Source: Candidatus Multivoradales bacterium (GTDB taxonomy: Bacteria; Acidobacteriota; Thermoanaerobaculia; Multivoradales; JAHEKO01). Taken from it: a stretch of DNA of 64,000 nt. The DNA lies in assembly GCA_965223855.1 (NCBI GenBank), contig CBDCXM010000009.1, positions 2,320,900 to 2,384,899 of the forward strand, read 5' to 3'. Positions 950 to 46,927 of this stretch are shown one piece after another. The notes below the pieces were generated by a model. That model ran no database searches and was not told the DNA's origin. It saw only the letters and a program-made list of their open reading frames with translations. The position numbers and the translations under genes were made by a program. Position 1 is the first letter of the stretch. Each line of letters begins with the position of its first letter.

Positions 950-1920
950 TCAGAAAAGCTCCAGCCCCCAAAGGTCGTGCAGGTGAACGACCCCCTCGAG
1001 CACGCCGCCGGCGTCGCAGACGAAGAGCGAGGTGATGCGATCGTCCTCCATCGCCTTGAGGGCCGCCGAGGCGGGCTTGTCGCCGTCGATCGTGTGCGGG
1101 GTGTCGTGCATGCACTCGCCGGCGCGCCGCTCGAGGAGCGACGGGTCGGCGGAGATCCGCCTCCTCAAGTCGCCGTCGGTGATGCAGCCCACCAGCATCC
1201 CGTCCCCGTCGATCACCGCGGTGATGCCGAGCCGCTTGTTCGACATCTCGTAGATCGCGTCCGGCATCGGCGTCTCCGGATCGACCGCCGGCAGCCGCTC
1301 GCCGCCGTGCATGACGTCGCGCACCGACAGCAGCCGGCGCCCCAGCCGGCCACCGGGATGGAGGCGCTTGAAGTCGTCGCGCGAGAAGCCGCGCACCTCG
1401 GCGAGCGCCATCGCCAGCGCGTCGCCGAGCGCCAGCGTCGCCGTCGTCGAGGCGGTTGGCGCCAGCTCCAGCGGGCACGCCTCCTTGTCGATCGCCGTCG
1501 GCAGGTGGAGGTCGGCGAGCTTCGCGACGGCGCTTTCGGCGTTGCCGGTCATGGCGATCATCGGCACGCCGAGCCGCTCGAGAATCTCTCCCAGCCGCAC
1601 CAGCTCCTCGGTCGAGCCGGAGTAGGAGGCGGCGAGCACAATGTCTTCCGGGGTCAGCATGCCGAGGTCGCCGTGGATCGCCTCCGCGGGGTGGAGGAAG
1701 AACGCCGGCGTGCCGGTGGAGGCGAGAGTCGCCGCGACCTTGCGCAGGACGAGGCCGCTCTTGCCCATGCCGGTGCACACGACCCGCCCTTCGCACGCCG
1801 CCAGCCGCTCGACCGCCCGGTCGAAGCTCTCGCCGAGCTGCTCGATCAGGCCGGCGACCGCCGCCGCCTCGATCTCGAGCACCTGACGGGCGACCTCGCG
1901 CGGCGCCCTCGTTTCCCCGC

Positions 1921-1924
<4 letters not shown>
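950..1924 (-). CDS. kdsD: Arabinose-5-phosphate isomerase, KpsF/GutQ family (SIS + 2 CBS)
   Basis: GMGKSG, HPAEAIHGDLG, HPGGRLG and C-terminal CBS pair; likely TTG start at 1924 overlapping the kdsA stop. Confidence 0.92.
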
Positions 1925-4445
<2,521 letters not shown>

Positions 4446-4471
4446 CTAGCTGAGCCGATGCGCGCGCACGT

Positions 4472-5224
4472 TCAACCCGTGCCGCCCGCGAGCAGCTCCC
4501 GGACCGCCTCCAGGTCCGCCATTGTATCGACCCCCGGCCACGCCTTCTCGACCTCGAGGACGCGGATCGGGATGCCGTTCTCGAGCGCCCGCAGTTGCTC
4601 GAGAGACTCCGTTCGTTCCAGCGGTGTCGGCTCGAGAGCCGCCAGCTCGAGGAGCGTCTCGCGCTGGTAGCCGTAGATGCCGATGTGCTTCAAAGGGGCC
4701 GCCCCGTCCAGCCGCGCGAACGGGATCGGCGCACGGCTGAAGTAGAGCGCCGTACCGTCGCGCGCGGTCACCACCTTGACGACGTCGGGGCTCGCGAACT
4801 CCTCCTCGCGCGCCGGGGCGGCCAGCGTCACCATCGGCACCTCCGGGTGCTCCACCAGGTGCTGGGCGAGGCGCGCGATTGCCGCACCGTCGAGGAGCGG
4901 CTCGTCCCCCTGCACGTTGACCACCGCCGCCGCTTCCCACCGGCGCGCCGCCCAGGCGATGCGGTCGGTACCGCTCGCACAGTCCGCGGGCGTCATCTCC
5001 ACGTTGCCGCCGAAGCCGCGCACCGCCGCCTCCACCCGCTCGTCGTCGGTCAGCACCACGGCCGCCAGCCCCGCCTCTTCGGCCCGCCGGTAGACGTGTT
5101 CGATCATCGGCCGGCCGGCGATCTCCAGGAGCACCTTGCCGGGCAGCCGGGTCGAGCCGTAGCGCGCCGGGATGGCGGCGACGACGGCGGATTCTCGCTG
5201 GTGGGGGGGCGGCGCGGGGTGCAC
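4472..5224 (-). CDS. kdsB: CMP-KDO synthetase
   Basis: IPARYGSTRLPGKVL, NVQGDEP, KHIGIYGY, LEQLRALE. Confidence 0.96.
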   Translation of the reverse strand: MHPAPPPHQRESAVVAAIPARYGSTRLPGKVLLEIAGRPMIEHVYRRAEEAGLAAVVLTDDERVEAAVRGFGGNVEMTPADCASGTDRIAWAARRWEAAAVVNVQGDEPLLDGAAIARLAQHLVEHPEVPMVTLAAPAREEEFASPDVVKVVTARDGTALYFSRAPIPFARLDGAAPLKHIGIYGYQRETLLELAALEPTPLERTESLEQLRALENGIPIRVLEVEKAWPGVDTMADLEAVRELLAGGTG

Positions 5225-5229
5225 GATTC

Positions 5230-5258
5230 AATGTACTCACCCCACTGTGGCGAGTCAA
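5230..5258 (-). promoter_or_regulatory. Sigma70-type promoter for kdsB-pyrG-kds operon
   Basis: Minus strand TTGACT (5258-5253), 17 nt, TACATT (5235-5230). Confidence 0.6.
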
Positions 5259-5323
5259 CGGGCCGAGACCATGGGCGAGCCCCGTTCGGCCCCGGCGAGC
5301 AGCACGGTACGATCCGCTCTTCC

Positions 5324-6436
5324 ATGAAGTCGCGCCCCTATCTCACGACCCTGGTGCTGCTGGCGATCGCGCTGGTGACGGCGCACTGGATCCTGCGCTC
5401 GCTCGAGATCCGCCCCGGGGTGCACGAGGCGCGCTGGATCTGGGCCGAGCAGCGCGACGAACAGGGGACGCCGATGGCGTTCTTCGCCGTGCGCGACTTC
5501 GACCTCGACTTCGAGCCGACCGCCGCCACCCTGTGGGTCGCAGCCGACGAGGAGTACCAGGTCGGCCTCAACTCGGACGCCTTCGGCGTCGGCCGCCTCA
5601 CTCACTCGGAGGGTGGTGCGGTGGTGATCGACCACTACCGGGTGGAAGACGTGCTCGAGGTCGGATCGAACCAGCTCGCCATCGAGGCTCGGAGCAGCCG
5701 CGGCGCAGGCGGCCTGATGGCCCATCTCGACGTCGAGGGCGCGAACGGCGAGCGCTGGAGACTGTCGACCGACGAGGCGTGGCGCATCGTCCGGGGTGCG
5801 CCGGCGGAGGGACGATTCCCGCCCGGCGGCGAGGAGCCGGTGGTCTGGGGCCGCGCTCCCAGCGGCCGCTGGGCGAAGCTCGACTCGAGCGGCGACGAGA
5901 CCCTCACCCTCGGCGCGCTCCAGGGCGAGCGGCGAATCCGCCCGCAACTCGCCGAGCGCTGGCGCCGGCCGCGCGAGCCGTGGCAGAAGGCGGAGGGGTA
6001 CCTGGCACCCCGCATCGGCCCGTGGGTCACCTTCGACTTCGGCCGCGAGCGCACCGGCTTCGTCAACCTCAAGTACGACGACGGCCAGTCCTCTGCAGGC
6101 AGGCCGGGAGTGGGATTTCTCTACTACTCGCGGCACGAGCCCAAGGACGGCCTCGAGCACCCGGACGAGGTGATCCTGCGGGTCCGCGGCCGCACCAACT
6201 GGGCGCCGAGCCGGCCGGCGACCTTCCGCTTCGTAACGGCGATCGGTTCCCCGTCGATCGTCGCCGCGGAGATCCTGCCGGTCGACCCCCGAATCGCCGC
6301 CGAGCGACTGCTGCGACCGACGCCCGGAAGCCTCTTCGGCGTCGACCGCAAGAAGACCCTAATGTCGCCGGCTGAGCACGAACTCCGGCGCCAGCTCGAG
6401 GGCTTCCCGGGCCTGGCTGGGCGGAAAGAAGGCTAG
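5324..6436 (+). CDS. Membrane-anchored protein with alpha-L-rhamnosidase N-terminal-like beta-sandwich domains
   Basis: N-terminal TM; ARWIW, VAADEEYQVGLN, WVTFDFGRERTGFV resemble GH78 non-catalytic domains; ATG at 5324. Confidence 0.55.
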   Translation: MKSRPYLTTLVLLAIALVTAHWILRSLEIRPGVHEARWIWAEQRDEQGTPMAFFAVRDFDLDFEPTAATLWVAADEEYQVGLNSDAFGVGRLTHSEGGAVVIDHYRVEDVLEVGSNQLAIEARSSRGAGGLMAHLDVEGANGERWRLSTDEAWRIVRGAPAEGRFPPGGEEPVVWGRAPSGRWAKLDSSGDETLTLGALQGERRIRPQLAERWRRPREPWQKAEGYLAPRIGPWVTFDFGRERTGFVNLKYDDGQSSAGRPGVGFLYYSRHEPKDGLEHPDEVILRVRGRTNWAPSRPATFRFVTAIGSPSIVAAEILPVDPRIAAERLLRPTPGSLFGVDRKKTLMSPAEHELRRQLEGFPGLAGRKEG

Positions 6437-7381
6437 CTGCCGCTTCGCCTCCTCGGCATAGCCGAGGGCGAGCTCGCGGGTCTCCTCGAGCGTCCCTTCC
6501 GAGTGGACGATGTCGAGGATGTCCTCCGTCGAGGCGCGGGCGAAGGCGCCGTCCTCGAGCACGTGGGCGATCGCCGCGCGGCGCCGGTCATCGACCCGCG
6601 GCAGCGCCAGCAGGAGCGGCAGCGTCAGCTTGCCCTCCTTCAAGTCGGAGAGCACCGGCTTGCCGAGCTCGCGCTCGCGGGCGGTGAAGTCGAGCAGGTC
6701 GTCCACCAGCTGGAAGCAGATGCCGAGTGCCTTGCCGTACTCCGAGAGCACCTGCGCGGCGTCGGCGCGCTCCGGCGTCATCAGCGCCGGTGAAGACGCG
6801 GCGGCGGCGAAGAGATGCGCGGTCTTCCGCTCGATGATCGAGAAGTACTCCTCGCGGGTGAGATCGATCGCCCCCAGGCGGTCGAGCGCCAGCAGCTCGC
6901 CCTCGGTCATTCGCAACGTCGCGTCGCACAGCCGCTGCACGACCTTGAGATTCCCGTGCGACAGCGCCATCTGCATCGAGGTGGTGTAGAGCCAGTCCCC
7001 CAGCAGCACCGTCTTGCTGTTGCCCCATACCTCGTTCACCGTCGGCTTGGAGCGGCGCAACGGCGCGTGGTCGATGATGTCGTCGTGAATCAGCGTCGCC
7101 GAGTGGATCAGCTCGACCACCGCGGCGTAGGTCACCTCTTCCTCGCTGTCGCGCTCGAGCATCTCCGCCGCCAGCAGCACCAGCGCCGGCCGCATCCGCT
7201 TGCCGCCCCCCTCGAAGATGTAGGCGCCGGCCTCTTCGATGAACGGCACGTCGGAGGCGAGGCTGCGGCGGAACACGTCCTCGGTCTGCGCCAGCTTGTC
7301 GGCGATGAGGGCGAAGTAGCGCGCGCCGGTCGACAGCCGGATCGTCGACCTCAGGGCGGATTTGGAGGCTTCGAGGGTCAC
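6359..7381 (-). CDS. ispB: Polyprenyl diphosphate synthase (IspB-like)
   Basis: GGGKRMRP, LIHDDIID, FQLVDDLLD. Confidence 0.88.
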   Translation of the reverse strand: MTLEASKSALRSTIRLSTGARYFALIADKLAQTEDVFRRSLASDVPFIEEAGAYIFEGGGKRMRPALVLLAAEMLERDSEEEVTYAAVVELIHSATLIHDDIIDHAPLRRSKPTVNEVWGNSKTVLLGDWLYTTSMQMALSHGNLKVVQRLCDATLRMTEGELLALDRLGAIDLTREEYFSIIERKTAHLFAAAASSPALMTPERADAAQVLSEYGKALGICFQLVDDLLDFTARERELGKPVLSDLKEGKLTLPLLLALPRVDDRRRAAIAHVLEDGAFARASTEDILDIVHSEGTLEETRELALGYAEEAKRQLAFFPPSQAREALELAPEFVLSRRH

Positions 7382-36912: not shown

Positions 36913-37560
36913 TCAGTCGGCCAGGAGCCGTGCGCGGAGCTCCGAGAGCCTTTCGGCGGCGGAGAAGTTCTCTGCCAGCAGGTACTCGGAGACGAGCCAG
37001 TCGAGCCGGTGGGCGAGGGCGGCATCCAGAGGAAGCATCCCCTGCTCGAGCAGCAGGTAGGGGTGCTCGCCGAGCTTTCGGGCCTGGTCGGCTCTGCCCT
37101 GGCTCTCGTACAGGTGCTGCAGCCGAGCGACGTAGATCGCGACGGAAGACGGCTTGCCGGAAATCCCCGGGGTGGCAGCTGAGCCCGGGCCTCGTGAGAG
37201 GAGCATCTCTACGACGGCCAGCGACTGCATCGACTCCGCGCGCTCGTGGTCGCCGTCGAGGTAGGCGACCAGGCCGAGTTCGTCCAGCGTTTCGGCGAAC
37301 CGCCAGTCTCTGGCTCCGAAGGCTCTTGCAAGGAGCGCACCGGCGCAGAACTCGAGATGGGCAGCGTCGAGGTCGCCCGTTCGGATCGCTTCGATTCCCG
37401 CGAGGTAGTGGCGGTTCCAGGCGGCATCGGTCGACCCTTCCTGGCCCTCCGACGACTCGAGGACGAACTGTCCGTCTCGCCGGCAGGTCTCCGGGACCCA
37501 TCGTTCGAGGGGAGCTCGGTCGCTTTCGTTCTTCCCGCTCTCGGCGGGCATTGCGGCCAT
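36913..37560 (-). CDS. TPR-like hypothetical protein
   Basis: AETLDELGLVAYLDGDHERAE and LQHLYESQGRADQA TPR-type helices. Confidence 0.55.
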   Translation of the reverse strand: MAAMPAESGKNESDRAPLERWVPETCRRDGQFVLESSEGQEGSTDAAWNRHYLAGIEAIRTGDLDAAHLEFCAGALLARAFGARDWRFAETLDELGLVAYLDGDHERAESMQSLAVVEMLLSRGPGSAATPGISGKPSSVAIYVARLQHLYESQGRADQARKLGEHPYLLLEQGMLPLDAALAHRLDWLVSEYLLAENFSAAERLSELRARLLAD

Positions 37561-37576: not shown

Positions 37577-37775
37577 GGAGTTTCGGTGACAGGATACTTT
37601 TCTTTGCGACGAGGAGTTTCGGTGACAGGATACTTTTCTTTGCGACGGGGAGTTTCGGTGACAGGATACTCTTCTTTGCGACGGCTCTTCTCTTCGCCCC
37701 GTTGCCTCGTCGCGTCTCAGGGCGACGGACCGAGTGGAGTGGAAGGGGAGTTAAGTAACCTGTCACCGAAACTCC
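37577..37775. repeat. Three tandem 36-bp REP-containing units plus one inverted copy (REPIN/BIME-like)
   Basis: GGAGTTTCGGTGACAGGATACT(T/C)TTCTTTGCGACG(A/G) at 37577, 37613, 37649; inverted AAGTAACCTGTCACCGAAACTCC at 37753-37775. Confidence 0.9.
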
Positions 37776-37826: not shown

Positions 37827-39155
37827 ATGCGGCGTGCACTCGACATCGCTGTGCTGGGGTGGTTGGTACTGGCTGCATCCACCGCAGCCCAGCCTCCTTG
37901 CGATCCTCTCCCGCCCCCCGCAGGTCCGGTCGTCGACGTCTTCCCTGCGGACGCCGGCCAGCTTCGCTCGATCGTGGCAGGCGCCGCTGCCGGCACGACG
38001 CTTCTCCTCCACGACGGCTTCTACGACCTGAGCCACGGTGACAGCAACGACCGGCTGAGCTTCCACACCCCCGGCGTGACGCTTCGCTCGGTGAGCGGCA
38101 ACCGCTCGGCCGTAGTCCTCGACGGCGACTACACCACCAACGAGCTGATCAGCATCCACGCCTCGAACGTGACGATCGCCGACCTCACGGTTCAGCGTGC
38201 CTTCCATCACCCGATCCACGTCTCCGGGCAGGCGGGGGCGCCGATCGACGGGGTGGTGCTCCACAACCTGCACGTCGTCGATCCGGGGGAGCAGGCGATC
38301 AAGATCAACGCCGTGGGCGACGGCTACGCGGACAACGGCGTGGTCGAGTGCAGCCTGATCGAGCTGACCGACGTGGGGCGGCTCGAGATCAGGAACAACT
38401 GCTACACCGGCGGCATCGACGCCCACAAGGCGTGGGGATGGGTCGTTCGACGCAACCGCATCACCGGCTTCTGGTGCGACCAGGGACTCTCGGAGCATGC
38501 GATCCATTTCTGGAGCGCCTCACGGGACACGCTCGTCGAGGAGAACGCGATCGCCGACTGCGCACGGGGAATCGGCTTCGGCCTCGGGTCGAGCGGGGCG
38601 GATCGGACGTACGCCGACAACCCGTATCCGGGCGTTGGCTACCTGGGGCATATCGACGGCACGATCCGCAACAACTTCGTCGCCGCCAACGACCCCGCGC
38701 TTTTCGCCTCGGTGTCCGGGTTCGATACCGGAGTCGGGCTGGAGCAGGCCCGCGGCACTGTGGTGTTCCACAACAGCGTGGCCTCGACCGAGGCGCCTGC
38801 ATCTTCATCCATCGAGTGGCGCTTTCCCAACACGCTGGCCGAGATCGCCAACAACCTGGCGAGCGATCGATTGCTCGAACGAAACGGGGGAGTGGCGAGC
38901 CTCGCGACAAACCTCGAGCATGTGGCGTTGTCGTGGTTCACGGATGTGGCGGCGGGGGACCTGCATCTGACTCCGGCAGCGACCGGCGCCGTAGACGGAG
39001 GGACGGCTCTGCCGCCCGGGTTTGCCGACCTCGATATCGACCTCGAACCGCGCGACAGCTCACCGGACGTCGGGGCCGACGAGGTCGGCGACACGATCTT
39101 CGCCGACGGGTTCGAGTCGGGGGATACGTCGGGCTGGTCGGCGACGGTGCCGTGA
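37827..39155 (+). CDS. Secreted right-handed beta-helix protein with C-terminal DGFESGD motif
   Basis: Signal peptide; repeated IRNN / VEEN beta-helix turns; ends DTIFADGFESGDTSGWSATVP. Confidence 0.8.
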   Translation: MRRALDIAVLGWLVLAASTAAQPPCDPLPPPAGPVVDVFPADAGQLRSIVAGAAAGTTLLLHDGFYDLSHGDSNDRLSFHTPGVTLRSVSGNRSAVVLDGDYTTNELISIHASNVTIADLTVQRAFHHPIHVSGQAGAPIDGVVLHNLHVVDPGEQAIKINAVGDGYADNGVVECSLIELTDVGRLEIRNNCYTGGIDAHKAWGWVVRRNRITGFWCDQGLSEHAIHFWSASRDTLVEENAIADCARGIGFGLGSSGADRTYADNPYPGVGYLGHIDGTIRNNFVAANDPALFASVSGFDTGVGLEQARGTVVFHNSVASTEAPASSSIEWRFPNTLAEIANNLASDRLLERNGGVASLATNLEHVALSWFTDVAAGDLHLTPAATGAVDGGTALPPGFADLDIDLEPRDSSPDVGADEVGDTIFADGFESGDTSGWSATVP

Positions 39156-39231: not shown

Positions 39232-41271
39232 CTACGGCGTCTCGGACCCTGTCGTGAACAGGATCGTTCCGTAGAGGCCCGAGGCCAGGACGCCGCCCGT
39301 CGAGGGGGCCAGGACATCGCGGCCGAAGCCTACTGAGTAGTCGCCACTCTGCCAGTCCGTCGTTCCGTTCCGGTAGCGGTACAGGCGCCGGTCGCTGCCG
39401 TACCAGATCGTGTCGCCGCGGACAGCAAAGCCGTGAATCGGGTTCTGGGTGATCTGCTGTTCGTCGACCACCACGTAAGTACCCTGCTCGAAGCGCATCG
39501 TGGTCAGCACTCCGTCGTTACCCGCCAGTCTGATGAGGGGCGAGCCGTAGCTCGGTGCCACGGAAAGATCCGTGAAAGCGCCTTCGAGCGAGAACTCGGT
39601 CTCGCCGGTGCGCGCGTCGAGAACGAGCAGCTCTCCGAAGGAGCCGTGGCTCTTGAGCGCCAGGAGCTCCGGCGCCGGGTCACGATCTGTGTTTCCTACC
39701 CGTAGAGCCGTGGCAGGCGGGCTCCCGTCGGTCGTTCTCCAGAGCTCTCGACCGTCTCGCGCGTCGAACGCCGCGATGTAGGCGCCGGCCGGGTCACTCA
39801 CGCCGGCGATGAAAGCCCTCAATCTTTCGTTGCCGAGGCCCTCGACAGAGGTGAAGGAGGTCGTGGCGGAGTCGAAGGTCTTGCGCCCGATCGACTTGAA
39901 CCCGTCTCCTCGGAACTTCCAGGCGTCCAGGGAGGAGCCATGGGTGTGGCTTCCCGCGAAGAGGATCTCGGCACACCCGTCGCGATCCACGTCTCGCACC
40001 CTGAGGTCGACCGCTCTCGTCGCGTCCCTGTCGCCGGCTCGAAGCACGGTTCTGATGGCGAGAGTCACGGGGTCGAGGACAAGAACCGCTGCCGGATCGG
40101 CACCGGACAGTTGGCTGCCCGCGGCGACGACCAGCTCGGGCTCCCCGTCACAGTCGACATCGGCCTCCTCCGGTCCGAGGAAGGGGCCCCGCAACGACAG
40201 ACTGCGCCACTCCGGCTTGCCCGTCGCCCCGTTCGTGGCGTGAAGATAGTCGGGGCCGGAGCTGTGACCGCCGGCGCTCCAGAAGACCTCCTTGATTCCG
40301 TCTCCGTCGAGGTCCTGAACCGCGAAGCCCTTGGTCGTGTCTCCCTGGCTGACCCACTCGCGCAGCAGAGTCGAGGTGTCGTAGGCATTGACTCCACCGG
40401 GGCCGTCGAAGACCACCTCAATCGCGCGGTCGTCATCCAGGTTGCCGAGGCCGATCTTGCCTCGCGATTGGACGCCGAGCGTCCAGAGCTCCGACCGGGT
40501 CTCCACGTCCCACGCATAGACCGACGAGAGATAGGTGCCGACGAGCTCCAGGTTGCCGTCGTGGTCGAGGTCCGCCGCGCTCAGGCCCAGCGTCCTGTAT
40601 TCGGCGAACCGCCAGACAGGCTCGAGGGTCGGCAGATCGAAGACCCAGCCGCCGTCCACCGCCACCTCCAGATCGGCATCACCGTCCATCTGTCCCAACA
40701 CCAGGCTGGTGCTGTAGAAGTCGTCGACGGCCGCGAGGCGCTGGCCCGAAGAGGAGAACAGCGCCAACTGGCAGTCGATACCGACGAACTCGGGAGCCGG
40801 ACCGCCGAACAGGTCGACGGCTTCCACCGCCTGGAGCGAACATCCGGACCGTACCTGCAGCTGTACCGCCCCCAGCTCCCGCTTGTCGGTGGCGGAGAAG
40901 AAGCGAACTCTGCCGGTGACGCCTGCCGCGTAGATCCGGCGTTCACTGATGCCGGGAGCCTCGCGAACGACCCCGACCTGAGCGAGGATTCCCAGGCTGT
41001 CGCTCACGAAGGCGGTTCGGTATCCGTCCGACTCGGTCGGCTTGACGGTGTACCAGTAGGCGCCGGGATGCGGCGCGGTCGCCAGCATCTCCCGATCGAT
41101 GCCGGGCGAGAGCGGCATCAGACCCGCCTCTCCGATCCGGGTGCCGAAGCTCGCGAGCCCCCGAATCGGCCGCGGCTCCGAGTCCACGTCGGTCTGTCCC
41201 GAGGCGACACCTGTCGAGAACAACGCGACAAGCGATGCAGCCAGCAGCCCGGGTGAACGGCGGAGGTTCAC
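39232..41271 (-). CDS. Secreted FG-GAP/VCBS-repeat protein
   Basis: Repeated DxDxDGxxE motifs (DLDHDGNLE, DLDGDGIKE, DVDCDGEPE, DVDRDGCAE). Confidence 0.75.
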   Translation of the reverse strand: MNLRRSPGLLAASLVALFSTGVASGQTDVDSEPRPIRGLASFGTRIGEAGLMPLSPGIDREMLATAPHPGAYWYTVKPTESDGYRTAFVSDSLGILAQVGVVREAPGISERRIYAAGVTGRVRFFSATDKRELGAVQLQVRSGCSLQAVEAVDLFGGPAPEFVGIDCQLALFSSSGQRLAAVDDFYSTSLVLGQMDGDADLEVAVDGGWVFDLPTLEPVWRFAEYRTLGLSAADLDHDGNLELVGTYLSSVYAWDVETRSELWTLGVQSRGKIGLGNLDDDRAIEVVFDGPGGVNAYDTSTLLREWVSQGDTTKGFAVQDLDGDGIKEVFWSAGGHSSGPDYLHATNGATGKPEWRSLSLRGPFLGPEEADVDCDGEPELVVAAGSQLSGADPAAVLVLDPVTLAIRTVLRAGDRDATRAVDLRVRDVDRDGCAEILFAGSHTHGSSLDAWKFRGDGFKSIGRKTFDSATTSFTSVEGLGNERLRAFIAGVSDPAGAYIAAFDARDGRELWRTTDGSPPATALRVGNTDRDPAPELLALKSHGSFGELLVLDARTGETEFSLEGAFTDLSVAPSYGSPLIRLAGNDGVLTTMRFEQGTYVVVDEQQITQNPIHGFAVRGDTIWYGSDRRLYRYRNGTTDWQSGDYSVGFGRDVLAPSTGGVLASGLYGTILFTTGSETP

Positions 41272-41566
41272 GACGGGCAGAGTCTAGCAAGGAAGGGCCG
41301 ATGCTCCCGGAGCTGCCGCGCCGGAAGCCTGAGAGCTCGCCAGAGCGTCACGGAGACGAGGATGCCCGAGCTCGCTCGCCCGGTACGGAGCTGGAGCCGG
41401 GAAAGTCGGGGAGTCGCGGCCCCGTTGGTATGCCTCGCGGTACTGCTGTAGATAGTTGTGTAGCGGGATGGCTCGATTGCAAAGCCGTGCCCCAGAGCAC
41501 AGAATCAGCGCCTGTTTGCAGGGTGAACAGCTGCCATCTCATCCCGGGGGGGCCGGAATCGGATGC

Positions 41567-42238
41567 ATGCGAAACACCCGAATCAGGAAGGCCTTGTGCT
41601 CGCGCCGCTCCCGCGGCTACACGCTGGTGGGGATGATGGTGGCGGTCACCATCATCGCCGCCTCGCTGGCGTTCGTCCTGCCGGCGTTCCAGAACTGGAT
41701 TCAACGGGCTCGCGTGGAGGGGTTCGGCAGAGAGCTGTCCGTGCTGCTCCGCCAGGCTCGGAGCGTGGCGGTTCGCGACGGCGTGCCCGTGGTCGTCGCC
41801 CTCGACGAGGACAGCGGCGCGGTGTTCGCGTTCCTGGATCGCTCCGAGGCGAGGCCGGTCGGCCCCGACGACGGGGTCTTCAACCCGGATGATGGCCTGC
41901 CTTCGGACCTCACGGATCTCCAGATCGGACGGCGCTTCCTTCCCGGTGGTGTCGGCTTCCTGACGCCTGGGGGAGACGACCTGATCGACGGCTTCACGAG
42001 GGTCGGCGCCGAGCGGGTCGCCGTGTTCGAGCCGGACGGCTGCGTTCGCAACAGCGGGGCGTTTCGTTTCGGAGATCAGTGGGGCAACTATCTCGAGGCG
42101 CGAGTCGGACCGGCGGCCTCCGCCCGCGTTCAACTCAGAAAGCACACCTCCGCCGGAGGCGGCGCCAACTGGCAAACGCGCGAGGAGGCCCCCTGGGAGT
42201 GGTACTGGGGCAAAGGCCGGCAGGCGACCGAATCGTGA
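41567..42238 (+). CDS. FimT/GspH-like minor pilin
   Basis: Basic leader, G|YTLVGMMVAVTII hydrophobic helix, ARSVAVRDGVPVVV; E5 replaced by G. Confidence 0.7.
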   Translation: MRNTRIRKALCSRRSRGYTLVGMMVAVTIIAASLAFVLPAFQNWIQRARVEGFGRELSVLLRQARSVAVRDGVPVVVALDEDSGAVFAFLDRSEARPVGPDDGVFNPDDGLPSDLTDLQIGRRFLPGGVGFLTPGGDDLIDGFTRVGAERVAVFEPDGCVRNSGAFRFGDQWGNYLEARVGPAASARVQLRKHTSAGGGANWQTREEAPWEWYWGKGRQATES

Positions 42239-42639
42239 CCGGCTCCGGGGCTCTAGGGCGACGAAGCGCACAGAGGGGGATCCTCGTCCTCCTGTCCGCC
42301 CTGTTTTGCGGGAGCCTCGCCTGCTCGTCACCGCCCGCCGAGGTTCCGGCCGAGATCCTGGGTACCTGGACGACTGGCGCCGCGGGCTTCGAAGGTCGGG
42401 CGATCGAGATCCGCTCCGAGGCGATCGAGTTCGCCAACGGGGGCGATGCGACGGTCTCGCACTGGGTCACCGCGGTCGAGGTCGGCGAGGCCGCTGACGG
42501 GCAGCGCCCGATGGTGATCGTGTACGAGGGCGAGGGCGGCAACGAGTATCGCCTCGGAGTGATCCACGATCGGGCCGAGGGCACGCTGAGGCTGCGTCAT
42601 CGGGGAGCGGTCGAGTGGCGTCGGGGGAGCGGAAGGTGA
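42235..42639 (+). CDS. Small putative lipoprotein
   Basis: GTG overlapping upstream stop; ILVLLSALFCGSLAC then ILGTW. Confidence 0.6.
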   Translation: MTGSGALGRRSAQRGILVLLSALFCGSLACSSPPAEVPAEILGTWTTGAAGFEGRAIEIRSEAIEFANGGDATVSHWVTAVEVGEAADGQRPMVIVYEGEGGNEYRLGVIHDRAEGTLRLRHRGAVEWRRGSGR

Positions 42640-43136
42640 CCGGGCCCGGGCTCGAGCGTCGCCCTGCCCCGCAACCCGACCCGCGTCTCGGCCGGGCCGT
42701 CGGCTTCACGGTGCTGGAGACCCTCATCGCCGTGACGCTCGTCGGCGTGCTGGCAGCGATCGTCGTGCCCTATGTCCTGGGCGAGCTCAAGAAGAGCCGG
42801 GAGCTGCGCGTCCTCGGCGATCTGCGGGCGATCGAAGCAGCGATCGAGACCTATCAGGCCGACCTCGCCGATCTGCCCGACGACCTCGACCAGGTCGGCA
42901 TGGACGTCCCGCTCGATCCCTGGGGGCACGAGTACCGCTACTTCCCGTTCAAGGGCAACAACTGGAGGGGTAGCGCCCGCAAGGACCGCTTCCTCGTACC
43001 GATCAACTCGACCTACGACCTCTACAGCGTCGGCCCCGACGGAGAGTCGCGGCCGCCGCTGACTGCCCCCCAGAGCTGGGACGACCTGATCCGGGCCAAC
43101 AACGGCGAGTACATGGGCCCCGCGTCGGAGTACTAG
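42636..43136 (+). CDS. GspG-like prepilin/pseudopilin
   Basis: G|FTVLETLIAVTLVGVLAAIVVP, DPWGHEYRY, YDLYSVGPDG, DDLIRANNG. Confidence 0.85.
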   Translation: MTGPGLERRPAPQPDPRLGRAVGFTVLETLIAVTLVGVLAAIVVPYVLGELKKSRELRVLGDLRAIEAAIETYQADLADLPDDLDQVGMDVPLDPWGHEYRYFPFKGNNWRGSARKDRFLVPINSTYDLYSVGPDGESRPPLTAPQSWDDLIRANNGEYMGPASEY

Positions 43137-43146
43137 GGACTGGAGG

Positions 43147-44763
43147 ATGCTGAGTTCCCTGTCGAGTCGCGTCGGTCGTCGTCTGGTCTTCCTGTTCGGC
43201 GTCTCGGCGATCGTGCCGCTGCTCGGCCTCGCCACGCTGTCGTACTTCGCGGTGAGCGACTACCTCCTCGAGTCGAGCCGCAACGAGCTGCGGGTCGGCA
43301 GCAAGTCCTACGGCATGAGCCTGCTGGAGCGCCTGCAGGCGCTCGAAGCGGCGCTCGACGAGGCGGCGCCCCTCGCGGAGGGGGGAGAGCTGCCGGAGGC
43401 GAGGCGGGAACTGCTGGCTCGATACTTCGAGTGGCTCGGTGTCCTCGAACCCGGTTCGACGGCGCGGACTCTGGTCGGCGACGCGGCCGCGGCGCCCGCC
43501 GACGAGCATCTGCTTTCGCTCGGCTCTCTCTCCAGCGACGCGACCTCGGTGACCCACCGCCCTGTCCTGCTCGCCATCCGACGGCCGACGGCCGACGGCG
43601 GGTTCCGCATCCTCGCCGGGCGCCCCACCGAGAGCTACCTGTGGTGGGGCTCGGTGGGCGAAAGCACGCTCCCCGCCAGCACAGGTGTCGTTGTCCGTGC
43701 CGACGGCGAGATCGTTCACGTGACCCTGGCGGAGCGAGGCACCGAGGCGCATGGTCGAAGAGCGCTGACGCCGGCGCCCCCGGTCGAGCAGTCGGTGGGT
43801 GGGCACTGGACCCTGCCGTTGAGCCTGAGTTTCGAAGGCGAGGACTGGGAGATCGCCTGGATCCGTTCGAGAGACGATGTGCTCCGACCGGTCCGCCGCT
43901 TCACCGGCACCTTCGCATTGGTCCTGACGGCGACGCTGCTCGGCGTCGCCCTGCTGGCGCTGACCCAGATTCGCCGCTTCCTCGAGCCGCTGGGTGAGCT
44001 GGGCGTCGGCGTGAGGCGGGTGGCGCGGCAGGACTTCTCGACTCCGGTGAAGGTCTCGAGCGGCGACGAGTTCGAGGACCTGGCGAAGTCGTTCAACGGC
44101 ATGACGCAGCAGGTGGAGACCCTCATCGGGGAGCTGCGACGCCACCAGCTCGGGACGCTGCGCTCACTGGCGCGAACGATGGACGAGCGCTCGCCGTGGA
44201 CGCTCGGCCACTCGGGACGGGTGGCCGATCTGTGCCGGCGGATCGCCCAGGTGATGGCGCTTCCGGACCGGGAAGTGCGGACGCTCTACCGGGCCGGTCT
44301 GCTCCACGACATCGGCAAGCTGCGACTGCCGACCGAGCTGCTCGAGAAGCCCGCCGTGCTCACGCCGTCGGAATTCGAGCAGATTCAGGAACACGTCGAG
44401 GCCGGAGTCCGGATTCTCGCGCCGATCCCCGGGTATGGGGCGGTCACCAAGGTCGTGGAGGAGCATCACGAGCGACTCGACGGCACGGGCTACCCGCGCG
44501 GGCTGTCCGGCGACGACATCTGCCTGGGAGCGCGGGTTCTTGCGGTGGCCGATTCGTTCGACGCTCTCTCGAGCGACCGTCCCTACAGGCCTCGATTCAC
44601 CCGAGCCGAGGCGCTCCAGGAACTCCACAACGGCTCCGGCACGCTCTACGACCCGGAGGTACTGGCAGCGTTGGAGGTAGCCCTGGCGCTCGACCCGGCT
44701 CGTCACGCGGATCGGAGCGCCGTCGTCGAAGAGCCCTCGGACAGGGCCGAGTCCGCGAACTAG
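43147..44763 (+). CDS. Membrane sensor: TM-periplasmic domain-TM-HAMP-HD-GYP cyclic dinucleotide phosphodiesterase
   Basis: HAMP (PLGEL...GDEFEDLAKSFNGM), GHSGRV, LHDIGK, HHERLDGTGYP, VADSFDAL, RPY. Confidence 0.9.
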   Translation: MLSSLSSRVGRRLVFLFGVSAIVPLLGLATLSYFAVSDYLLESSRNELRVGSKSYGMSLLERLQALEAALDEAAPLAEGGELPEARRELLARYFEWLGVLEPGSTARTLVGDAAAAPADEHLLSLGSLSSDATSVTHRPVLLAIRRPTADGGFRILAGRPTESYLWWGSVGESTLPASTGVVVRADGEIVHVTLAERGTEAHGRRALTPAPPVEQSVGGHWTLPLSLSFEGEDWEIAWIRSRDDVLRPVRRFTGTFALVLTATLLGVALLALTQIRRFLEPLGELGVGVRRVARQDFSTPVKVSSGDEFEDLAKSFNGMTQQVETLIGELRRHQLGTLRSLARTMDERSPWTLGHSGRVADLCRRIAQVMALPDREVRTLYRAGLLHDIGKLRLPTELLEKPAVLTPSEFEQIQEHVEAGVRILAPIPGYGAVTKVVEEHHERLDGTGYPRGLSGDDICLGARVLAVADSFDALSSDRPYRPRFTRAEALQELHNGSGTLYDPEVLAALEVALALDPARHADRSAVVEEPSDRAESAN

Positions 44764-45230
44764 TCCTCGAGTACGCCGGGCCAGTTTTCGTCGGCCTTCT
44801 CGATATTGGCGTCGCGATCCTCCTGCCACTGCGACATGACGCTCAGGCTGTAGTTGAGGAAGAGTCGGTCGCCGACGACGGTCCATGCCTCAGGATCGGT
44901 GGAGGCGGTGTAGCCGCGGCTGACCGCCCAGGCGCAGTAGCCGCCGTATTGCGGCGCCCATCGCTCGGGGTCCTCGGCGAAGCGGTCACGGTTCTCGGCG
45001 CTGGCGAAGCGCCACTCCGCGCCGTTCCACTCGTAGGTGTGGTCGCTCGATCCTTCGACCGGTTCGGCTTCGGTGAAGTAGACGACCGGGTCGTAGCCGC
45101 GGATGGCGACGTTGCTGAGGGTGGTGGTGAACACCGGGTCCTCGGCGGCCGCGGCGGGGGTGGGAATCGTCAGCAGCGCGAGAAGGGCGGCTGCTACCGG
45201 GAGTCGCAGGAACAGGAATCGACAGGTCAT
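44760..45230 (-). CDS. Secreted YHS-domain protein
   Basis: AIRGYDPVVYF, WRFASAENRDRF, PQYGGYCAW; ATG 45230. Confidence 0.85.
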   Translation of the reverse strand: MTCRFLFLRLPVAAALLALLTIPTPAAAAEDPVFTTTLSNVAIRGYDPVVYFTEAEPVEGSSDHTYEWNGAEWRFASAENRDRFAEDPERWAPQYGGYCAWAVSRGYTASTDPEAWTVVGDRLFLNYSLSVMSQWQEDRDANIEKADENWPGVLED

Positions 45231-45352
45231 CGGCTCTCCGATCTGGTGGCGTTGGCCTGCCACTCTATCGGCGGTTTCGCGCATACGCCTGGATCGGTCA
45301 CAGGCCGCTCGTGCCTTGACGGCGCCGGAACCGCCCTCGAAGCGGTCCCGCT

Positions 45353-46927
45353 TCAGCGAGAGGCGTTGGACGCCGCCGCCGCCGCTGCGTCTTCCGGCAC
45401 CTCGAAAGCAAACGGCAGCGGCTCGAGCTCGGTCGCGCAACCGATGTCGACTCCGTCGAGCGACGAAGCCTCCGCCAGTTGACCGATCGCGCCCAGCCAG
45501 CACGCCGCCGCCGCTTCGTCGAGGGCCCCGTGTCCGCGGTGGGCCAGGACCATGTGGAGGCTGCGGGAGAGGGTGCGAGCGACGAGGTCGCCGTTGGCGA
45601 CCGGGGTCACCGGGTCGAGTTCGCCGCTGATCAGCAGTACCGGCACCGAGGAAACCAGCGGCTCGCGCATGTGCGGGTCGGCCTCGCCCCGGGGCCAGAC
45701 TTGGCAGATGTCGAGCTGCTGCTGCATCCGGTACATCCCCAGCACCGTGCCGTTCGAGGACGCGATCTCGCGTTCGAGATCGACGAAGGGGAGATCCTCG
45801 GCGCAGGTCATCGAGAAATAGAGGCCCTTGTAGAAGTTCACGCTGATGTCGTAGTAGGCGAGAGCGATGAGGCTCAGGAGTGGCTCGTAGTCACCTCCAT
45901 GGGCGGCGGCGATGAGCTGCGGGAAGCGGGCGAGTACCGGTGCCCGATAGGCGAGGAACCTCAGCCCCATGACGAACTCACCGTAGGCGAGGGTGACGTC
46001 CTGCGGCTGGTCGAAGGCCGGGTGGGTGACCGTGGCTCGCGCCGGCTCGTCCCCGACCCGCGCGAGGACTTCGGCCAGCTGCTGGGCGAACTGCGGGTAG
46101 GCGCCGTGGCACACCGCGTCGTTTGCGCAGAGCTCGACGAGCTGGTCGAGGGCGTCCTGCTGAGAGCGTGCGAACCCCGAGGGGGCGGTCATCGAGGGCG
46201 GCGCCACCCCGAGGAGCACCGCGAACTCGATGCGCTCCGGGTGGCGGCGCACGGTCTCCTGTGCGAGCCGGGTGCCGTAGGAGCCGCCGAAGAGCGCCAT
46301 CCGGGGGTAGCCGAGAGCCGCTCGCACGTCGTCGAGGTCGTCGGCGGCGTAGGAGGTCGTGTACTGGGTGAGGTCTGCGTCCGGCGACAGCGCGTCGCGG
46401 CACCGACGCACGTCCTCGAGGCGCAGCAGGTAGGTCATGTGGGGCTGCAACCGGTCGGCAGGTCCGGCCGGCAGGCACTGCAGCGGCGCTGAGCGTCCGG
46501 TGCCTCGTATGTCGACGAAGACGAGATCGCGGGCGCCGAGGAAAGGAGTGATGTAAGGGCCGAGGCCCCCTGCGGAGGCGGTCGCCGCGTCACCCGGGCC
46601 GCCGGCGAGGAAGAACAGTGGAGGCTTCGCGCCGTCGGGGTCGGGATCGGCTGCCGGCAGGACCACTGTGAAGAGCGCCAGCGTCCGCCCGGTCTCCGCG
46701 AGGCGATTCTCGTAGACCTCCACGGTGCCGCATCTCGCCTCCGAAGGCAGTCCGAGTTCCGCTGCGCATGGCTGTGGTGTCCATGATCGAGGTGTTGCCT
46801 CTTCCGCGGCCGAAGCGCCGGCCGCCGTCAGGAGGAGGCCCGTCAGCAGAGCCGCCAGGGAAGCGTGAGGGACGGAAGGCCGCGGAGCGACAGGTGGCAG
46901 GGGCGGAGCGCATCGCAGTGGCTTCAT
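45353..46927 (-). CDS. Secreted alpha/beta-hydrolase, S33/TAP-like peptidase
   Basis: LAGGPG, DIRGTGRS, GGSYG, GELDPVTP, GHG. Confidence 0.85.
   Translation of the reverse strand: MKPLRCAPPLPPVAPRPSVPHASLAALLTGLLLTAAGASAAEEATPRSWTPQPCAAELGLPSEARCGTVEVYENRLAETGRTLALFTVVLPAADPDPDGAKPPLFFLAGGPGDAATASAGGLGPYITPFLGARDLVFVDIRGTGRSAPLQCLPAGPADRLQPHMTYLLRLEDVRRCRDALSPDADLTQYTTSYAADDLDDVRAALGYPRMALFGGSYGTRLAQETVRRHPERIEFAVLLGVAPPSMTAPSGFARSQQDALDQLVELCANDAVCHGAYPQFAQQLAEVLARVGDEPARATVTHPAFDQPQDVTLAYGEFVMGLRFLAYRAPVLARFPQLIAAAHGGDYEPLLSLIALAYYDISVNFYKGLYFSMTCAEDLPFVDLEREIASSNGTVLGMYRMQQQLDICQVWPRGEADPHMREPLVSSVPVLLISGELDPVTPVANGDLVARTLSRSLHMVLAHRGHGALDEAAAACWLGAIGQLAEASSLDGVDIGCATELEPLPFAFEVPEDAAAAAASNASR

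Follow-up and report, generated by a model that had tools for sequence, protein, structure and literature searches.

A GspG-like pilin and a small beta-protein as candidate input-side partners of a membrane HD-GYP sensor in Acidobacteriota and other phyla

Analysis of a 64,000-nucleotide stretch of DNA from a Candidatus Multivoradales genome (Acidobacteriota; contig CBDCXM010000009.1 of assembly GCA_965223855.1), referred to here as the window, revealed an operon of four plus-strand open reading frames (ORFs), g1 to g4, at positions 41567 to 44763; these encode a FimT/GspH-like protein (g1), a small membrane-tethered protein (g2), a GspG-like pilin (g3), and a membrane sensor with an HD-GYP output domain (g4). 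Comparison of this operon with its counterparts in other genomes, together with predicted structures, leads us to favor, with some reserve, a reading in which g2 and the pilin act in the inner membrane as partners dedicated to the input side of the sensor, the proteins together forming a heteromeric receptor whose output is cyclic-dinucleotide hydrolysis. The triad of g2, pilin, and sensor is the conserved core when the loci are compared by sequence, and across phyla its three members are passed on and diverge as a set, separately from any secretion or pilus machinery. A full-text literature search found no description of such a module, which apparently represents a widespread, undescribed pilin-sensor signaling system.

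A first set of 25 loci was collected from species-representative genomes with peptide patterns derived from the pilin, and 24 of them bore the pilin signature described below. These 24 came mostly from Gemmatimonadota but included a Terriglobales metagenome-assembled genome (MAG), a Deltaproteobacteria-labeled MAG, Methylomirabilota, two Planctomycetota, and one Actinomycetota-labeled MAG. A sensor homolog with the arrangement transmembrane (TM) segment, periplasmic domain, TM segment, and HAMP domain followed the pilin stop codon directly, typically within about 60 bp, in 23 of the 24 signature loci, the exception being L030; L033, whose GspG-like protein lacks the signature, had no sensor and constituted a negative control. 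The same order of pilin and sensor was found for three of three further metagenome pilins with independent gene calls, and the flanks were unrelated each time. Two profiles, built from the globular domain of the pilin only (A3) and from the TM1-periplasmic-TM2 part of the sensor only (A4), were each run against the genome of the window and 300 others of its phylum: the pilin was present in 17 of the 301 genomes, the sensor in 17, and both in 16. Within this phylum, the sensor adjoined 16 of the 19 pilin matches outside the window, and the pilin adjoined 16 of the 17 sensor matches, the remaining one lying at a contig end. Overall, the signature pilin was encoded directly upstream from the sensor in 42/46 loci outside the window, covering at least five named phyla. 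The initial annotation had proposed a neighborhood analysis of homologs of the gene at 42636 to 43136, which are thus seen to lie beside TM-periplasmic-TM-HAMP sensors in several phyla; the contrary outcome, homologs sitting in ordinary type II secretion system (T2SS) or type IV pilus (T4P) clusters, was not seen, as a search for machinery genes in about 40 module loci found none in any of them.

The module was not found in the sampled genomes of the window's own family, order, and class, and its distribution is patchy. The window pilin is 40 to 51% identical to copies from the same phylum and 58 to 60% identical to Planctomycetota or Terriglobales copies; that it is no closer to the copies of its own phylum suggests lateral spread. 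A word-indexed search for wider relatives with the sensor half gave only nine, the periplasmic domain being too divergent, and the locus-derived alignments A1 and A4 were used instead. The pilin profile, when run against 1.84 billion representative proteins, matched 1,208 clusters (50% identity) at an E value of 1e-10 or lower. A prepilin peptidase was encoded in 16/16 module genomes checked, which would allow the pilin to be processed but is not discriminating, since such a peptidase is common to most bacteria.

The comparison also indicates the half of the sensor to which the pilin belongs. The outputs of the partner proteins vary: most are HAMP-GAF-HD-GYP proteins, those of the window and of L034 lack the GAF domain, that of L022 is GAF-GGDEF-EAL, and that of L029, a hybrid kinase, is GAF-HisKA-HATPase-REC. 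Because the output varies while the sensor and HAMP parts are constant, the pilin goes with the input half. Pairwise distances were correlated between pilin and sensor (r = 0.66, a value reached in 0 of 2,000 permutations), between sensor and g2 (r = 0.87), and between pilin and g2 (r = 0.61). The globular domain of the pilin is by far the best-conserved part, with a mean identity of 55% compared with 28% and 27% for the other two proteins.

Several loci join the pilin to signaling parts covalently. In six representative clusters (P0143, P0164, P0184, P0242, P0270, and P0182), as well as in loci L032, L042, and L052, a single ORF encodes in frame, from the N terminus onward, a HAMP-like module with two TM segments (HRxAGPLxRF), then a coiled coil, a canonical class III signal of the form G/F[TS]L[VIL]E (the slash marking the cleavage site), and the signature pilin. 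The same HAMP-like module, which is barely detected by PF00672, is encoded by a stand-alone adaptor gene, placed between those for g2 and the pilin, in L046, L049, and L050 and recurs in other lineages as a fourth member of the module; no copy of it was found when the genome of the window was searched, and g1 fills that slot of the operon. In P0264, a receiver domain (PF00072, E = 5.6e-19) lies in frame at the N terminus of the signature pilin, right before ARG/FTLVE; in this protein, a cytoplasmic signaling domain replaces the prepilin leader. The N terminus of a prepilin is cytoplasmic, and the topology of these fusions is therefore consistent. The in-frame fusions tie the pilin to signaling parts in a 1:1 ratio.

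The pilin itself, g3 (166 amino acids; 42636 to 43136, plus strand; identified as an ORF and by family scan), consists of a leader of about 23 residues rich in Arg and Pro, the cleavage motif G23/F24-T-V-L-E28, a hydrophobic alpha1 helix, and a GspG-type globular domain. Its class III signal, ...GRAVG/FTVLETLIAVTLVGVLAAIVVP, has all of the expected elements, namely, Gly at position -1, a hydrophobic residue at +1, Glu at +5, and a hydrophobic helix of about 20 residues, and all of its relatives keep the Gly at -1 (Ala in three loci) and the Glu at +5. The T2SSG family (PF08334) scores 27 bits over the whole protein (cutoff, 21), with no single stretch above the cutoff, and the GspG equivalog TIGR01710 scores 53.1 bits, below its cutoff of 88.85; the nearest solved structure is the pseudopilin GspG (5wda; E = 3.4e-9). 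The C terminus, which had been called unusual, is a strongly conserved family signature in an alignment across several phyla. It occupies residues 114 to 166 (42975 to 43133, plus strand; RKDRFLVPINSTYDLYSVGPDG...DDLIRANNGEYMGPASEY), and the pattern shared by sensor-linked pilins is RKDRFLVPINSTYDLYS.G.DG…DD[IV]VRANDG. In an alignment of 22 sequences from several phyla, 22 of the 110 columns of the globular domain are invariant, and on this basis the C-terminal signature is what defines the family of sensor-linked pilins.

The sensor, g4 (538 amino acids; 43147 to 44763, plus strand), has the architecture proposed for it in the initial annotation, with TM1, a periplasmic domain, TM2, HAMP, and an HD-GYP domain with all catalytic motifs; family scan, motif residues, and an AlphaFold2 (AF2) model agree on this, and Foldseek comparison points to a double-Cache-like periplasmic domain. 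TM1 spans residues ~12 to 35 (43180 to 43251, plus strand) and is preceded by the motif RVGRR; the periplasmic sensor domain, according to AF2 and Foldseek, spans residues 36 to 250 (43252 to 43896, plus strand) and comprises a long stalk helix and two alpha/beta modules; TM2, at residues ~251 to 272 (43897 to 43962, plus strand), is a hydrophobic helix that runs into the HAMP domain in the AF2 model. HAMP follows at residues 275 to 324 (43969 to 44118, plus strand; PF00672, 45 bits; cutoff, 25), and the HD-GYP catalytic domain follows at residues 342 to 505 (44170 to 44661, plus strand; PF13487 [HD_5], 154 bits), with H355, H387-D388, H416, H440-H441-E442, G446/G448-Y449-P450, and D469 completing the motif set. 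The AF2 model, computed from a 28-sequence alignment, has a mean predicted local distance difference test (pLDDT) score of 87.6, and its stalk helix covers residues 8 to 77. The double-Cache topology, a long N-terminal helix and two PAS-like alpha/beta modules between TM segments, fits this model, although the Foldseek scores are only moderate: the periplasmic half matches the ligand-binding domains of Mlp24, Mlp37, rpHK1S-Z16, LuxQ, CqsR, and PctC with E values of 4e-3 to 1e-1 and TMt values of 0.41 to 0.58. No Pfam dCache match was obtained for g4, and dCache_1 was below threshold in the L029 homolog.

The catalytic half of g4 matches DvhD (9rbz; E = 1e-13; TMt, 0.84), PA4781, and PmGH in Foldseek, TMt values for DvhD and PA4781 ranging from 0.81 to 0.86. 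Its best sequence match among solved structures is V-cGAP3 (5z7c; E = 1.2e-43), an enzyme specific for 3'3'-cyclic GMP-AMP (3'3'-cGAMP), while HD-GYP enzymes acting on cyclic di-GMP (c-di-GMP) match at about 1e-24, some 20 orders of magnitude weaker. The substrate would be c-di-GMP or possibly 3'3'-cGAMP; the genome of the window contains about 11 GGDEF genes. Conservation scores across the sensor are 0.60 for TM1, 0.42 for the periplasmic domain, 0.65 for HAMP, and 0.64 for HD-GYP; TM1 is thus unusually well conserved, on a level with the HAMP and catalytic domains and above the periplasmic domain. Within TM1, A21 and P24 are invariant, and R11 of the RVxRR motif is nearly so, which makes this segment a candidate contact for the N-terminal helix of the pilin.

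The third member of the core, g2 (134 amino acids; 42235 to 42639, plus strand; ORF and AF2), is predicted to consist of an N-terminal helix (residues 9 to 28) and an eight-stranded, all-beta domain (pLDDT, 87; predicted TM-score [pTM], 0.71) and would lie in the periplasm, tethered to the membrane. It had been described as a small lipoprotein, and a lipobox-type Cys is present in the window (...LFCGSLAC/SS), as it is in L034 and L032; most relatives, however, are Cys-free and have a plain N-terminal membrane helix as their anchor, so that the property conserved in the family, as read from these N termini, is membrane tethering and not lipidation. Trp residues W45 and W128 are invariant among relatives. 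Members of the family were recovered from 30 of 40 loci, where their gene precedes that of the pilin or follows that of the sensor; this number is a lower bound, as many loci are short. A family scan of g2 returned no family, a Pfam scan of its homologs gave matches for 0 of 20, and a fold search against the PDB found nothing significant, with weak lipocalin-like matches only (E values of 0.2 or higher). Jackhmmer matches to g2 in L010 and L012 were dropped because of poor alignment.

By comparison with this core, g1 (223 amino acids; 41567 to 42238, plus strand; ORF and family scan), a FimT/GspH-like protein of the minor-pilin type, is, on the homologs recovered, a lineage-specific accessory of the module and not part of its core. 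Its class III signal, ...SRRSRG/YTLVG, lacks the Glu at +5 and has Gly in its place; N_methyl scores 24.4 bits, passing the cutoff of 21.2, and GspH (PF12019) scores 20.0 bits, slightly under the cutoff of 21. In L034, the closest relative, the corresponding position is taken by a gene whose product has 47% identity to g1 in the globular part (BLAST) and Gln at +5; this is the only true homolog, none being found in the remaining module loci. Further relatives proposed by jackhmmer were discarded as drift onto the generic pilin N terminus, since BLAST with the globular domain left L034 alone. In L019 to L023, which belong to one Gemmatimonadota subclade, two extra pilin-type genes lie upstream from the pilin gene on the opposite strand and are divergently transcribed; they encode a GspH-like protein of about 150 amino acids, which is not homologous to g1, and a protein of about 270 to 300 amino acids, both with the motif G/FTLVE. 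The description of g1 and g3 as two orphan pilins therefore holds with regard to the distance of the machinery, but only g3 belongs to the core.

That distance is considerable. The genome of the window (4.5 Mb, 9 contigs), in which the operon lies at C9:2,362,466-2,365,662, contains ten T2SSE-type ATPase matches, two platform genes (at 1.41 and 1.73 Mb), two strong secretin matches (at 1.42 and 1.82 Mb), and one prepilin peptidase gene (at 1.39 Mb). The ATPase match closest to the operon is about 132 kb away. As had been noted from the window, no ATPase, platform, secretin, or prepilin peptidase is nearby: all lie more than 130 kb from the operon, with platform, secretin, and peptidase genes more than 500 kb away, and the label "orphan" is correct in this sense.

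On these data, we propose the following working model. Once inserted, and probably once cleaved by the single prepilin peptidase of the genome, the pilin would stay in the inner membrane, where its N-terminal hydrophobic helix would pack on TM1 of the sensor, with Glu+5 of the pilin possibly near R11 of the RVGRR motif in g4 at the cytoplasmic face. The conserved globular C-terminal face of the pilin and g2 would dock onto the periplasmic double-Cache-like domain. The state of the complex, be it partner occupancy or a ligand on g2 or on the Cache domain, would then pass through TM2 and HAMP and switch the HD-GYP phosphodiesterase, which would alter the level of c-di-GMP or possibly 3'3'-cGAMP. 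In this scheme, g1 might be a lineage-specific extra subunit in the slot taken elsewhere by the two-TM HAMP-like adaptor.

A number of observations weigh against such a receptor and have to be set beside the evidence for it. The support as a whole is drawn from genome comparison and predicted structures, the Foldseek scores behind the double-Cache assignment are moderate (E of about 4e-3, TMt up to 0.58), and common ancestry accounts for part of the distance correlations. No sensor adjoins the pilin in four loci, and L052 encodes g2 and an adaptor-pilin fusion with no sensor adjacent to them. The strictly kept Gly at -1 and Glu at +5 and the GspG calcium-site motif would equally be expected of a polymerizing pseudopilin, and g1 and the extra pilins of L019 to L023 look like a fiber-priming set. 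Finally, in L051 (G039:C2:1158500-1168500, ~1868-6767), a divergent g2-pilin paralogue pair adjoins a GspE-type ATPase gene. The genes of that small cluster encode, in order, a 311-amino-acid pilin-like protein, a 382-amino-acid uncharacterized protein, g2, the signature pilin, and a GspE/PilB-type ATPase with a c-di-GMP-binding MshEN N-terminal domain; it may represent an ancestral or alternative context of the pilin family. We rejected L051 as a full secretion cluster because the ATPase is its only machinery gene, with no platform, secretin, or peptidase gene within 12 kb. A Mutator-family transposase gene lies upstream from the cluster. Another of the loci, L053, is a 3-kb contig.

Some of these points would fit an explanation in which g3, primed by g1, is polymerized by one of the distant T2SS or T4P machines of the host, and the sensor monitors the unassembled pool or the fiber; assembly state or surface contact would thereby be fed into cyclic-dinucleotide turnover, as the initial annotation had suggested and as in PilA-PleC or PilA-PilS sensing. 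The class III signal, with Glu at +5 and Gly (or, in three loci, Ala) at -1, is intact in all members and accompanied by the calcium-site motif, among solved structures g3 comes closest to the PulG-type pseudopilus subunit 5wda, the host genome has T2SSE-type ATPases, platforms, secretins, and a prepilin peptidase, g1 is GspH-like, extra pilin genes occur in L019 to L023, and the L051 paralogue lies beside an MshEN-T2SSE ATPase. We nevertheless consider both the fiber subunit and the reporting of assembly or contact unlikely, as the module is outside machinery clusters in all of the approximately 40 loci, occurs patchily among genomes of the phylum (17/301), moving as a unit complete in itself, and in most loci includes one pilin gene only with the sensor. 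Fusion to a HAMP-like or receiver module fixes a 1:1 stoichiometry, which would be odd for a polymer subunit; together with the patchy, self-contained distribution, the fusions favor a membrane-resident receptor subunit over a fiber subunit. What stands of the earlier proposal is a probable role of the pilin as an input dedicated to the periplasmic sensor, given the 42/46 adjacency and its tracking of the input half. Since c-di-GMP controls pili and secretion, it might also be argued that g2 and the pilin act as cargo or as effectors, for instance an adhesion or secretion accessory, that are merely coregulated with the phosphodiesterase and not physically coupled to it. Operon membership alone would permit this, and the MshEN ATPase neighbor in L051 would agree with it, but the pilin keeps the TM/periplasmic/HAMP half as its partner when outputs are exchanged, TM1 is conserved, the sensor-g2 distance correlation is 0.87, HAMP-like and receiver fusions occur, and the sensor family was not seen without the pilin; an output role is accordingly improbable. 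An orphan pseudopilin remnant stranded by chance next to an unrelated sensor would account for nothing but the absence of machinery nearby and deserves scarcely any credence. The four ORFs are intact with coupled junctions, adjacency is kept in 42/46 loci across phyla, and 22 pilin columns are invariant; decay is contradicted by these comparative data.

Pilins are known as subunits of fibers, and two model organisms have a sensor that reads the membrane pool of a structural pilin. If the pilin and g2 are indeed partners of the sensor, then the principle of pilin-pool sensing has here been fixed genetically, a dedicated pilin being encoded alongside a sensor of its own and one further partner; the set would have spread laterally via Gemmatimonadota, Acidobacteriota, Planctomycetota, Methylomirabilota, and other phyla, in a pilin family of about 1,200 clusters. 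More tentatively, and with somewhat less confidence than in the partnership itself, we suggest that the pilin fold and its class III signal might have been co-opted in many phyla for a nonfiber, obligate TM subunit of widespread heteromeric envelope receptors. Such receptors might be composed of the pilin, the small beta-protein, and a double-Cache/HAMP transducer, with or without the two-TM HAMP-like adaptor, and might feed c-di-GMP enzymes or histidine kinases; this composition is likewise put forward as a possibility. In the fused forms, prepilin-peptidase cleavage could then be regulatory, cutting the pilin loose from the HAMP or receiver module on the cytoplasmic side. The compact system of three or four genes could be transferred to a laboratory host and used to study how a pilin helix signals to a sensor TM segment, what role prepilin peptidase has in signaling, and what is detected by double-Cache sensors without an evident small-molecule pocket. 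For annotation, lone "type II secretion protein G" calls of this kind are probably not secretion components.

The arrangement of the operon agrees with what had been read from the sequence. The GTGA start/stop overlaps are at 42235 to 42238 (g1/g2) and 42636 to 42639 (g2/g3), and the 10-bp gap between g3 and g4 (43137 to 43146) ends in a GGAGG ribosome-binding site (43142 to 43146, plus strand). The genes flanking the operon on both sides are on the opposite strand, and the operon is thus self-contained. Upstream and divergent from it, at 39232 to 41271 on the minus strand, is a gene for a large secreted FG-GAP/PQQ-like beta-propeller repeat protein, whose neighborhood with the module is not conserved elsewhere. 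Downstream, a YHS-domain gene (44760 to 45503, minus strand) is convergent with g4; the two stop codons overlap in the palindrome CTAG (44760 to 44763), leaving no space for an intergenic terminator. Scans of 41200 to 45000 found 0 promoters by consensus and two terminator-like sites, both inside g1, which is the level expected by chance. At 37577 to 37684, a 36-bp unit, GGAGTTTCGGTGACAGGATACTTTTCTTTGCGACGG, is present in three tandem copies with 97% identity; this repeat has a G+C content below that of its surroundings and lies between a minus-strand gene ending near 37560 and a gene for a beta-helix protein starting at 37827.

Parts of the module resemble known systems. The catalytic domain of g4 has all the motifs of DvhD, PA4781, PmGH, and V-cGAP3, none of which has a TM/double-Cache-like/HAMP input or a pilin partner. 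The pilin shares with GspG/PulG/EpsG (PF08334, TIGR01710, and 5wda) the class III signal with Glu at +5, the motif DPWG.PY.Y, the calcium-site motif D..S.G.DG, and, by sequence, the fold; unlike GspG, it falls below the TIGR01710 cutoff, has the family-specific C-terminal signature, and is encoded outside a gsp operon and paired with a sensor. In LuxP-LuxQ and YycH/YycI-WalK, too, a periplasmic double-PAS/Cache-type domain or the TM region of a sensor is run by partners encoded alongside, and LuxQ (3c30) and a WalK-YycH model (9a5d) were among the Foldseek matches of g4; the partners there, however, have other folds, being either single-TM proteins or a periplasmic binding protein, and no prepilin is involved.

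The closest parallels are sensors that respond to pilins within the membrane. In Caulobacter crescentus, mature PilA binds TM1 of PleC through its first 17 residues, and c-di-GMP is raised through PleD (Del Medico et al. 2020, PMC7196804); the periplasmic domain of PleC was modeled on the dCache receptor Mlp37 (PMC7196804). The likeness lies in an inner-membrane pilin as input to a two-TM sensor with a c-di-GMP output, and g4 matches the Mlp24/Mlp37 fold and has a conserved TM1; the TM1 contact is reported for PilA-PleC, whereas in the present module we infer it. PilA, however, builds the Cpa pilus as its structural subunit and is encoded in a pilus locus unlinked to pleC, and its output runs from kinase to cyclase, while the module described here has a GspG-like pilin that has no machinery of its own and is translationally coupled, g2 is added, and the sensor is itself a phosphodiesterase. 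In Pseudomonas aeruginosa, PilA is sensed in the membrane by PilS (Kilmury and Burrows 2016, as cited in PMC6058289), and minor pilins and PilY1 signal to FimS-AlgR (PMC5979040), so that there, as proposed here, a sensor protein detects pilins within the membrane. PilS differs in lacking a periplasmic domain and in having six TM segments and a kinase output acting on pilA transcription, and the pilins are true subunits from pil operons. In pilin-pool sensing of this kind, the sensed pilin is the cell's own structural pilus subunit; what we find is a single-copy pilin with no machinery of its own and a distribution independent of pilus loci. By analogy, the module most plausibly works like PilA-PleC and PilA-PilS sensing yet differs from it in kind.

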